DNA of 64,000 bases, from positions 6,134 through 70,133 of the IMG/VR virus record IMGVR_UViG_3300023096_000001. The stretch is one strand, 5' to 3'. Source of the DNA: a virus. The translations under genes and the position numbers were made by a program. Positions 26,327-28,275 of this stretch are shown one piece after another. Each line of letters starts with the position of its first letter. Position 1 is the stretch's first letter. The notes beneath the pieces were generated by a model. That model was not told the DNA's origin, made no database searches, and saw only the letters and a program-made list of their open reading frames with translations.

Positions 26327-26399
26327 ATTAATTTTGAAGCCTACACTTTATGTTTTTTTTCTTCTAATTCTTTGTAGTGCTGGTCCCATTGCAAAACAT

Positions 26400-27113
26400 T
26401 TAGTCGCTCTTGATCGGGGCGACTTTTTTTTCTTTCATCACGCCAATCGCTACTAATATCATCGTTAAAGATTCTACTGCTACAGGAATATCCGTTACAA
26501 CCTTTAGAAAGTTTTTCCCTTCCCAAACATATTCACTCTGATACACAATAGTGCAAAACAGAGCTGAGCAGTGATAAACCAATAAACACGATACAATCCA
26601 GAATACTGCTGAACGGGTCAAATCTTTGATGTAAAGCTCTTGAATAAGTTCTGAGTAAAATAACAGGCACAGAAATAAAATGAATGCAGATCGAAGTGGA
26701 AGAGAGAAAGATACGTACTTATGGTTATGAAGATCATTTACGATCGGATTTGACCATATGAGATCAACACTAAATAATGCCACATAGCTAATCGTTAATA
26801 TAGTCACAAGCATCTTCCTGGGTTTATCTAAGAAGATATACTGAAAGAATAACCCCGTTAAAATAGCACTTACTAAGACCCAAGTATTGCAGATCAGTAA
26901 GGTATTCATGCTCTGGCAAGCCATAAAAAGGCCAATGCTGTCAAGAATAAACTTAAAAGATAAGTATACAGTAAAAACGCGCAAAGGATGACTTAACTCC
27001 TTGCGCGTTAATAGAAGTATCAGTGGCAAAATTGTAATTGCTGCGTTGATACCGTATACAGGATATACGATAAAATATTTTAAAATGTTAGTCATAAGCA
27101 GTTCGTAGGACAA
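26400..27113 (-). CDS. multi-pass (about 7 TM) membrane protein, host-like sensor-associated family
   Basis: about 7 hydrophobic helices; LLFYSELIQ...SAVFWIVSCLLVY motif. Confidence 0.7.
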   Translation of the reverse strand: MSYELLMTNILKYFIVYPVYGINAAITILPLILLLTRKELSHPLRVFTVYLSFKFILDSIGLFMACQSMNTLLICNTWVLVSAILTGLFFQYIFLDKPRKMLVTILTISYVALFSVDLIWSNPIVNDLHNHKYVSFSLPLRSAFILFLCLLFYSELIQELYIKDLTRSAVFWIVSCLLVYHCSALFCTIVYQSEYVWEGKNFLKVVTDIPVAVESLTMILVAIGVMKEKKVAPIKSD

Positions 27114-27403
27114 GGCGGGGGTGTATCTAATACTTTAACCTGCCCCTTTTTTACCGTATTATCCTTCGAGACAACTTCCACCACAGGACTTAAAGCAAAC
27201 CCTCCTTCGCGCGCTACCTCTGCCAGGTGGATCCTGACACCGGTAATACTTTTCACAGGCACCCCTTCGATGAGTTCTTTGATGGCATCAATATCGAAGA
27301 AGAATGACTCGACGTAGATTTCTCCTTCTTGCAGCGTTCTTGCTTTGAATTTTTCGATGGAGGATTGTGCCTCTTGCAATGTTGTTAGTTTTCCTTTGGA
27401 CAT
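27092..27403 (-). CDS. small protein with C-terminal PPPCPTNC motif
   Basis: FFFDIDAIKELI...GVRIHLAE...SPVV...VLDTPPPCPTNCL. Confidence 0.7.
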   Translation of the reverse strand: MSKGKLTTLQEAQSSIEKFKARTLQEGEIYVESFFFDIDAIKELIEGVPVKSITGVRIHLAEVAREGGFALSPVVEVVSKDNTVKKGQVKVLDTPPPCPTNCL

Positions 27404-27429
27404 GATCTGTTCTTAAATAGTTGAAATGC

Positions 27430-27461
27430 CGAAATTACCTACTTTTAGGTATACATCCAAA
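27430..27461 (-). promoter_or_regulatory. dedicated promoter of the PxCP/7TM pair
   Basis: -33 TTTG, 20 nt spacer, -7 TAATTTCG. Confidence 0.55.
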
Positions 27462-27467
27462 AGGATT

Positions 27468-27728
27468 TTAGTTATCGGTATTGACTAGTTTCCTGCTGAC
27501 AAACTTCTCACATTCTCCCAGGATAAACGCCAATGCTTTCTCATAAGAATCTTCTGCATGAAATTTCTTATCAACGAGTGGGTTAAATACCTCACTCGAA
27601 GGAAGATGTTTGAAGTACACCCGGTAAAGGATTTGCTCTGTGCTATCCTTGAAAGAAAAACATGTGATCAGGATGCGATGGTTATTGTAATAATAAGCTA
27701 CTTGTTCGAGTAATTCTTCTATGGTCAT
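27468..27728 (-). CDS. hypothetical phage protein
   Basis: 86 aa ORF. Confidence 0.55.
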   Translation of the reverse strand: MTIEELLEQVAYYYNNHRILITCFSFKDSTEQILYRVYFKHLPSSEVFNPLVDKKFHAEDSYEKALAFILGECEKFVSRKLVNTDN

Positions 27729-27907
27729 AAAAAACTCTCTTTATAGTCAGGCGAAATACTTTGCATAAATTCTATTTCTTCCTTCGTGAATTGAACATCT
27801 CCATATTTATCAGTATCCATCATATTGAAAACAAAGTCTACTCCTTCCATCCATTCAACATGTTGTCGATATTTCTCAAGAAGTTTTTTATAGTCTATAT
27901 TCTCCAT
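27725..27907 (-). CDS. hypothetical phage protein
   Basis: MENIDYKKLLEKYRQHVEWMEGVDF; start moved to ATG 27907. Confidence 0.6.
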   Translation of the reverse strand: MENIDYKKLLEKYRQHVEWMEGVDFVFNMMDTDKYGDVQFTKEEIEFMQSISPDYKESFL

Positions 27908-27909
27908 AA

Positions 27910-28275
27910 TTAATATCCGTTCATATTTACTTTCCACGCCTCAGCGAGGCTATCTTCTTTTGCATTTTCTTCTGGAGATAATTGCGCTTTAATACTCTCC
28001 AACTCTTCAGAGACTTTCACTGCCAGGTATTCTTTATAAAGAGAACTTCCTACGTGAAAGGCGCAGTTTTCAAGGATGCTATCCGGGTGAAATTCATCTA
28101 GGTTGACGACTCTGGGGTACTGTGATCCTTTGTAGGCATAAAACCGGCAGTATCGTACGCATATCTTACTGTTTTTAGGCACATACTCATGCAGGGGTCT
28201 GTGTAGCTTGTACACGCCTTCTGAGAGGTGCTGTACGCCATTTTTTAAGGTAAAGCGTGGTTCGCGAAGTTTCAT
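27910..28275 (-). CDS. hypothetical phage protein
   Basis: 121 aa ORF. Confidence 0.6.
   Translation of the reverse strand: MKLREPRFTLKNGVQHLSEGVYKLHRPLHEYVPKNSKICVRYCRFYAYKGSQYPRVVNLDEFHPDSILENCAFHVGSSLYKEYLAVKVSEELESIKAQLSPEENAKEDSLAEAWKVNMNGY

Follow-up and report, generated by a model that had tools for sequence, protein, structure and literature searches.

What are two overlapping genes, one for a small protein ending in a C-P-x-x-C (CPxxC) motif and one for a seven-transmembrane (7TM) protein, doing in a complete phage genome? They lie on the minus strand of a 64,000-nucleotide (nt) stretch of DNA (hereafter, the window), which comprises bases 6134-70133 of the virus record IMGVR_UViG_3300023096_000001, a genome of 96,243 bp with direct terminal repeats and a completeness rated 100%. 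The two genes correspond to the input half of a four-gene signalling operon of Bacteroidota, in a copy carried by the phage. What has been found is a phage-captured part of a host signalling operon, built on a bacterial module that is apparently undescribed; new here is also that the 7TM gene is exchanged along with the CPxxC tail of the small protein, the two forming one hypervariable cassette.

The small-protein gene (27092-27403, minus strand) encodes 103 amino acids (aa) with the C-terminus ...DTPPPCPTNCL and is followed by the 7TM gene (26400-27095, minus strand; 231 aa). The latter open reading frame (ORF) was first listed as 26400-27113, with 237 aa from a TTG start at 27113, but the ATG at 27095 is the likelier start because it overlaps the TGA stop of the small gene as ATGA, an arrangement that is the usual sign of translational coupling. 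The pair had been picked out in a sequence-only reading of this DNA, and both ORFs proved to be genuine rather than chance, since homologous pairs are present on eight further contigs of phage type and, among 401 sampled Bacteroidota genomes, in about 19%. The membrane protein of about seven helices described there has seven hydrophobic segments, and the motif quoted as FYSEL...FWI..LL.Y was located as FYSEL...RSAVFWI..LLVY at residues 146-174 (26574-26660).

In bacteria, the pair belongs to a widespread four-gene module of Bacteroidota, consisting of a CPxxC protein, a 7TM protein, a single-helix kinase and a regulator, which has no name in the libraries searched. A six-frame search of the 401 genomes, sampled across the phylum, detected the 7TM protein in 76 (~19%), often in several copies. 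The sequence-only reading had placed such pairs beside a histidine kinase and a response regulator, and had named homologs unlinked to these genes among the results that would speak against it. Neighborhood analysis bore out this context: the homologs are linked to a histidine kinase, which directly adjoins the 7TM gene on its downstream side in 39/39 bacterial loci, and a Response_reg+GerE protein comes after the kinase in the Spirosomataceae loci checked. Among 31 downstream ORFs compared with Pfam, HATPase_c was identified in 30, HisKA_3 in 25 and PAS+HisKA in five. Each of these kinases has one N-terminal hydrophobic helix that leads directly into a coiled coil and the phospho-acceptor domain, and the kinases are therefore without a sensor domain of their own; this architecture makes the bacterial 7TM protein a candidate sensor for the sensor-less kinase. 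Most bacterial loci also contain an upstream ORF of 100-250 aa with C-P-x-x-C near its end that can be aligned with the phage small protein, and the bacterial members are connected to one another by tblastn. The gene order of the window, small protein followed by 7TM protein with the ATGA overlap, recurs in the other loci, where the spacing between the two genes ranges from -59 to +144 nt and is mostly within ~45 nt (loci with a called upstream CPxxC ORF).

The complete operon is best seen in the closest bacterial relatives, which are Spirosomataceae, a family of the order Cytophagales, the order under which the sequence-only reading had placed the locus. On three bacterial contigs with closer profile matches, the order is CPxxC small protein, 7TM protein, kinase and Response_reg+GerE regulator, and the kinase (HisKA_3 + HATPase_c, 286-290 aa) has a start that overlaps the 7TM stop. 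Scanning the species genomes of GTDB gave nine loci, in Dyadobacter, Telluribacter, Persicitalea, Arundinibacter and a Cytophagales metagenome-assembled genome. In the Spirosomataceae loci, the 7TM protein, HisKA_3 kinase and Response_reg+GerE regulator follow in this order in 9/9, and the small gene was detected in 8/9. The same regulator also comes after the kinase in loci L005 and L008; this NarL/LuxR-type regulator is seen where the flanks are long enough, that is, in Spirosomataceae and relatives. Median pairwise identities among the Spirosomataceae operons rise from 44% in both the small protein and the 7TM protein to 63.5% in the kinase and 81.5% in the regulator, so that the input half evolves fastest. 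Literature searches yielded no description of a 7TM + HisKA_3 system in Bacteroidetes, and nothing relevant on phage proteins acting on host kinases.

Some bacterial loci have additional features. The operons of Dyadobacter (L010-L013) and of L005 have an Rdx (thioredoxin-fold) gene on their upstream side and a DJ-1/PfpI gene beyond their downstream end; these flanks were not seen in Persicitalea, Arundinibacter and Telluribacter, and may reflect synteny or hint at a redox regulon. Two or three tandem 7TM paralogs are present in some genomes (G338:C1:2383807-2386101; G290:C67:293776-295144; G192:C7), and in L036 two 7TM genes precede one kinase, so several 7TM sensors may feed one kinase.

The phage copies represent the input half only. 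The complete phage genome encodes no HATPase_c, Response_reg or GerE domain, in agreement with the sequence-only reading, which had described the pair as lacking kinase and regulator. What the phage has is thus part of the module rather than all of it. Eight further phage-like contigs, for a total of at least nine with the record of the window, carry the small-protein/7TM pair without kinase or regulator, and the kinase that directly follows the 7TM gene in the bacterial loci was found in none of the phage contigs. On these contigs, small ORFs are densely packed and accompanied by homing endonucleases and by genes for tail fibres or tailspikes; three contigs have a length of 95-115 kb. A blastn search of 4 kb against the INPHARED phages produced no match, and a search for related loci with the phage-only alignment detected no further loci in IMG/VR. 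Among sequencing runs, a leaf-litter metagenome contains the DNA and may be where it came from, and no RNA run carrying it was listed. A search of the phage genome revealed no tyrosine integrase, which leaves a role in the lysogeny decision without support.

The small protein has two parts with different histories. The conserved N-terminal alpha/beta domain (residues 1-83; 27155-27403, minus strand) was delimited by the alignment, an AlphaFold2 (AF2) model and the DNA identity to the related phage locus L054. The hypervariable C-terminal tail (residues 84-103 plus the stop; 27092-27154, minus strand) is the part that is swapped along with the 7TM gene in L054 and L055. Compared with the window, L054 shows 96% DNA identity over a 574-nt stretch that contains the preceding gene plus ~83 codons at the start of the small gene and reaches as far as window position 27155, where the similarity ends; it is lost at about codon 84-86, and the proteins agree up to residue 86. 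Beyond this point, L054 has a tail of the PTSVCPDDC type, and the start of its 7TM protein, of which the contig covers 55 residues, is only 35% identical to that of the window. Likewise, the N-terminal domain of L055 is 80% identical to that of the window and 94% identical to that of L001, whereas its 7TM protein is only 40% and 36% identical, respectively, and its DNA does not resemble that of the window again until the terminator region (about 26380-26429), with 94% identity over 50 nt. These ~50 nt form the downstream conserved flank of the variable cassette. The breakpoints thus coincide with the domain/tail junction and not with a gene boundary, as would be expected if tail and receptor were under selection to match.

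Across the phage loci, the tail type follows the 7TM type and not the N-terminal domain of the same protein. CPDDC tails accompany the 7TM group of L055, L054 and L002 (52-83% identical), and PPACPIFC tails accompany the 7TM proteins of L001 and L051, which are sisters in the 7TM tree (96/95) while their N-terminal domains are 37% identical. In partial Mantel tests with the N-terminal domain controlled for, tail identity correlated with 7TM identity both on eight phage loci (partial r 0.67) and on 16 phage and Spirosomataceae loci (partial r 0.63), with 0/5000 permutations as high, the loci in these tests not being independent; the tail and its own N-terminal domain, with the 7TM protein controlled for, gave a negative value.

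Such a pattern invites comparison with pherotypes: the small protein could be the precursor or carrier of a signal located in the variable CPxxC tail, perhaps disulfide-closed and freed by processing or lysis, and the 7TM protein its matched receptor, the pair serving to sense kin or superinfection with an output through the host kinase. A conserved N-terminal and a hypervariable C-terminal part resemble the precursors with a conserved leader and a variable core, the variable block consists of exactly the tail and the receptor with conserved DNA on both sides, and phages with N-terminal domains 78-96% identical differ in tail/7TM type, of which they have at least three. The properties of the small protein itself fit less well. 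In the alignment of 38 phage and bacterial small proteins, C98 and P99 are invariant and C102 nearly so (C-P-x-x-C, 27098-27112, minus strand), and all phage small proteins with a readable sequence terminate in C-P-x-x-C. The window protein combines this near-C-terminal motif with the alpha/beta domain (FFxG ... G-[IL]-R-x-[YH] ... V-x-V), a folded domain of ~85 aa that is conserved phylum-wide and is not a typical leader. The AF2 model from the 38 sequences has a predicted local distance difference test (pLDDT) score of 80 and combines two helices with a long beta-hairpin, after which the tail is poorly ordered; an earlier model from six sequences (pLDDT 63) was too weak. No solved structural relative of the model was detected (best E 0.25 with Foldseek, best Z 3.4 with VIA-align), and its shape matches in the ESM Atlas are only clusters of Bacteroidota hypothetical proteins.

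The distribution of export signals also bears on a secreted signal. The phage and Spirosomataceae small proteins lack a signal peptide, and their ORFs cannot be extended upstream; in one bacterial clade, largely the one with PAS-domain kinases, the small protein has a clear signal peptide or N-terminal anchor and is predicted to be exported, as a pherotype-like system would have it. The predicted topology of the 7TM protein is identical in the groups with and without an exported small protein. The neighbor tables of the phage and bacterial loci contain no modifying enzyme, protease or exporter at any locus, and no conserved cleavage motif was seen in the small proteins. With no linked processing genes and an N-terminal part that is modelled as a folded domain, the small protein differs from the precursors of ribosomally synthesized and post-translationally modified peptides and from those of secreted peptides. 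The sequence-only reading had called the two proteins a signal and a receptor; the co-variation of the CPxxC tail with the 7TM protein agrees with this description, whereas the folded ~85-aa domain and the missing signal peptide in phages make it ill-fitting for a simple secreted peptide. Taken together, we consider a pherotype-like cassette distinctly unlikely.

The 7TM protein of the window is a stand-alone protein of the size range of its family (200-235 aa) and is homologous to the kinase-linked bacterial 7TM proteins. In an hmmsearch of ORFs with the 7TM profile, the window scored 2.8e-77, and the kinase-linked bacterial ORFs scored from 2.6e-82 down to 6.9e-16. A profile of three phage 7TM proteins, compared with 1.84 billion cluster representatives (cut-off E<=1e-3), gave 278 matches with E values from 1e-111 to 1e-5; each of the best 150 of these is at most 302 aa long, and hence none of these 150 is fused to an output domain. 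The lysine/arginine bias predicts an N-out/C-in topology for the window protein and for 29 of 30 relatives, the remaining one being a tie, which places the FYSEL..RSAVFW motif in the cytoplasmic loop between transmembrane helices 5 and 6 (TM5 and TM6) and at the start of TM6. The ESM Atlas model of the protein has a predicted template-modelling score (pTM) of 0.80. Beyond close hypothetical proteins, its Atlas neighbors are membrane modules from signalling proteins of the AraC, HisKA and GGDEF types, with a template-modelling (TM) score of ~0.64; for the proteins carrying HisKA_7TM, this similarity between predicted models comes with no sequence match and is compatible with a shared architecture, kinship being unproven. 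The only nearly invariant residues among 36 sequences are N64, N70 and F165, and a role as an AgrB-like processing enzyme is unlikely, given that no nucleophile is conserved among these sequences.

Neither protein belongs to a family in the collections searched. Pfam contains no family for the small protein or the 7TM protein even at E<=1, and the search with 36 + 38 relatives retrieved nothing at E<=0.1; there was no match to the AgrB, AgrD or AgrC family domains of Pfam in either protein. NCBIfam has no family for either, profile searches of the PDB gave nothing for both families, and PHROGs gave one chance-level match (E 0.61) and no family of known function. PADLOC defence models matched neither protein.

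How the pair came to the phages was addressed with a maximum-likelihood tree of 54 7TM proteins, rooted at the midpoint only. Seven of the eight phage 7TM proteins, together with four representatives of unknown context, form one clade (96/97). It joins a Spirosomataceae clade (95/97) and the eighth phage copy, L007, in a group (96/89) apart from all other Bacteroidota homologs. Because the four-gene form occurs across the phylum, it is simpler to suppose that phages captured the pair from a Spirosomataceae-like host; given a midpoint root, the direction of transfer is unproven.

The sequence around the pair bears on its expression. In the 64-nt gap before the small gene there is a putative promoter of the Bacteroidota type (27430-27461, minus strand), with a -33 element TTTG (27458-27461) and a -7-like box TAATTTCG (27430-27437). 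This layout, TTTG-N20-TAATTTCG, has one mismatch to the Bacteroidota -7 box TAnnTTTG, and the L001 locus has the same layout with a one-mismatch box. A perfect TAnnTTTG box lies 33-40 nt before the small gene in 5/6 related phage loci (naive P ~2e-9, for a background frequency of 6e-4 per position), and independent transcription of the cassette is therefore predicted in most relatives. The independent promotion claimed for the window in the sequence-only reading thus holds in part there, given the mismatch. On the minus strand between 26531 and 31000 there is no perfect TAnnTTTG box, and the promoter of the leftward gene string from 29724 to 27468 is not obvious. The regions upstream of the cassette in L002 (1670-1849) and L053 (300-486) share a long conserved stretch (...ATTATTTTCAACCATTAACTAACTTTTCTTTAATCTATC...), although the proteins are only ~33% identical; the ATTATTTTCAACCATTAACTAACTTTTCTTTAATCTATC stretch may be a conserved regulatory region. 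At the other end, a terminator scan identified a G+C-rich hairpin with a T-run (26402-26424, plus strand) that ends the convergent plus-strand genes and lies over the last codons of the minus-strand 7TM gene.

These features bear on one alternative explanation, namely, that the pair is decaying passenger DNA, a recent accidental capture without function in the phage. The absence of the output genes from the phage copies, which leaves the module incomplete, would fit this explanation. Yet intact pairs are present in at least nine phage-like contigs with 42-73% protein difference except for one close pair, and they retain conserved motifs, translational coupling and an own promoter, with no stop codons; the phage copies moreover form an old clade. 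The identity among the phage copies, 27-58% except for the close pair at 83%, together with the retained family motifs and the promoter, indicates long retention under selection. Because the phage copies are old, intact and equipped with a promoter, we regard passenger DNA as very improbable.

Another alternative is a function that has nothing to do with kinases. The pair could be a membrane moron, involved, for example, in superinfection exclusion, in blocking the entry of competitors or in membrane protection. An own promoter and a setting among accessory genes, beside tail-fibre/tailspike genes on three contigs and TnpB-like genes on two, are typical of morons, and fast diversification is also expected in phage-phage conflict. 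Against a moron of this kind stands what the pair has kept, namely, the motifs of the kinase-linked bacterial 7TM proteins, including the cytoplasmic TM5-TM6 loop, and the matched small protein, which is always kept; neither protein, as said, matches a PADLOC model or a PHROG family of known function. We consider such a moron unlikely.

The gene neighborhoods vary among the phage contigs. The cassette is convergent with a large tail-fibre or tailspike gene in Z2HqHfyk, in L052 (5600-8248) and in L053 (1569-3998), and not in the window; the domains of these genes are Phage_tail_beta, PTL_trimer and Pect-lyase_RHGA_epim. TnpB-like genes (OrfB_IS605 + Cas12f1-like_TNB) are located directly after the cassette in L051 (4797-5831) and ~4 kb away from it in L053 (5772-6875), and are possible vehicles for its movement. 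Compared with L054, which is 94-96% identical, the window has ~250 extra bases (27725-27982) that hold a 70-aa ORF (27725-27937), suggestive of the gain or loss of a small gene among very similar phages.

Having weighed these alternatives, we propose that the pair is a phage-borne, specificity-matched input module that engages the sensor-less kinase of the host and imposes or blocks the phosphorylation of the NarL-type regulator, a proposal that we judge to be evenly poised between right and wrong. The phage 7TM protein made in the infected cell would insert N-out/C-in in the inner membrane; together with the matched small protein, it would dock onto the sensor-less kinase of the host or compete for it; and the host regulon would be forced on or off, or made responsive to the phage's own input. 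The CPxxC tail would be the specificity element that pairs with the 7TM protein, and it is proposed for this role because tail and 7TM protein are exchanged and co-vary as one unit. Several observations weigh against this proposal. The contact between the phage 7TM protein and any kinase is something we infer; the putative promoter box of the window itself is imperfect; and the tail codons abut the 7TM gene, so that physical linkage alone could yield part of the co-variation. With a signal peptide in one bacterial clade and none in the phage and Spirosomataceae versions, the small protein may meet the 7TM protein on either side of the membrane, and its two cysteines may accordingly form a disulfide or a thiol/metal site. 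Finally, the phage-only profile has matches in 43/151 sampled Spirosomataceae genomes (E<=1e-10), almost always in one copy, and a given host may therefore lack the target.

A more far-reaching version, which we deem unlikely, is that the CPxxC protein and the 7TM protein constitute an undescribed ligand-receptor input for Bacteroidota two-component signalling, with the short variable tail as the specificity key, and that phages carry allelic types of it, swapped like pherotypes and used through the host kinase to communicate, by sensing kin or superinfection, or to seize a host regulon.

About a fifth of the sampled Bacteroidota genomes hold a four-gene operon with two input proteins outside Pfam and NCBIfam, and its sensor-less kinase makes the operon a clean, testable case of a split sensor kinase. 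A lineage of phages of roughly 95-115 kb, probably infecting Spirosomataceae, has long kept the input half only, diversifying tail and receptor together, and the phage probably tampers with the host kinase pathway during infection. The locus offers a concrete starting point for asking whether phages manipulate host two-component signalling, or eavesdrop on it, in a phylum with no such case described, and the natural allelic swaps between the window and L054 and L055 are ready-made comparisons of specificity.

Among known systems, the bacterial module resembles the LiaF-LiaS-LiaR and VraT-VraS-VraR systems of Firmicutes, in which a HisKA_3 kinase with hardly any sensing domain acts with a NarL/LuxR-type regulator, and a separate membrane protein, LiaF or VraT, encoded just upstream, sets the activity of the kinase. 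The module described here likewise pairs a sensor-less HisKA_3 kinase with a separate, upstream-encoded membrane protein. However, LiaF and VraT are not 7TM proteins, their kinases have two helices compared with one here, the accessory proteins are not homologous, and the CPxxC protein has no known counterpart in those systems. The variable cassette, for its part, recalls the pherotype regions of agr (agrB-D-C) and comQXP, where the signal-encoding part and the sensor part of the receptor form a contiguous hypervariable block with several allelic types among close relatives. The tail + 7TM block similarly lies between conserved sequences and comes in several allelic types; it differs in that the variable receptor is a separate protein rather than the N-terminus of a kinase, the alleles reside in phages, and processing and export of the tail are unproven. 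By comparison of predicted models (TM score ~0.64), the seven-helix architecture is compatible with that of HisKA_7TM (PF16927) and of the 7TM N-termini of AraC-type regulators. The protein has no sequence match in Pfam, the HisKA_7TM and 7TMR-DISM sensor domains included, or in NCBIfam, and is never fused to an output domain among its 150 best relatives.

Among phages, vibriophage VP882 encodes the quorum-sensing receptor VqmA, a transcription factor located in the cytoplasm whose targets are phage genes. As in that phage, the sensing component here has been taken from a bacterial signalling pathway and is owned by the phage; in contrast to VqmA, the components are membrane-level and would need the host kinase for any output. 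The Clostridioides difficile phage phiCDHM1 carries agrD, agrB and agrC, which encode the pre-peptide, the processing enzyme and the receptor kinase; these genes were judged to have been horizontally acquired from the host and were proposed to influence host signalling (Hargreaves et al. 2014; PMC3901668). To go by the three genes listed in that report, the agr set comes without a response regulator. Compared with phiCDHM1 as described there, the locus in the window shows no sequence relationship and lacks the kinase too; its receptor is a stand-alone 7TM protein, its 'signal' a folded 100-aa protein with a CPxxC tail and no processing enzyme, and its hosts are Bacteroidota. Both phages nevertheless hold part of a host signalling operon, and, so far as that account extends, phiCDHM1 agr is the nearest precedent in kind.

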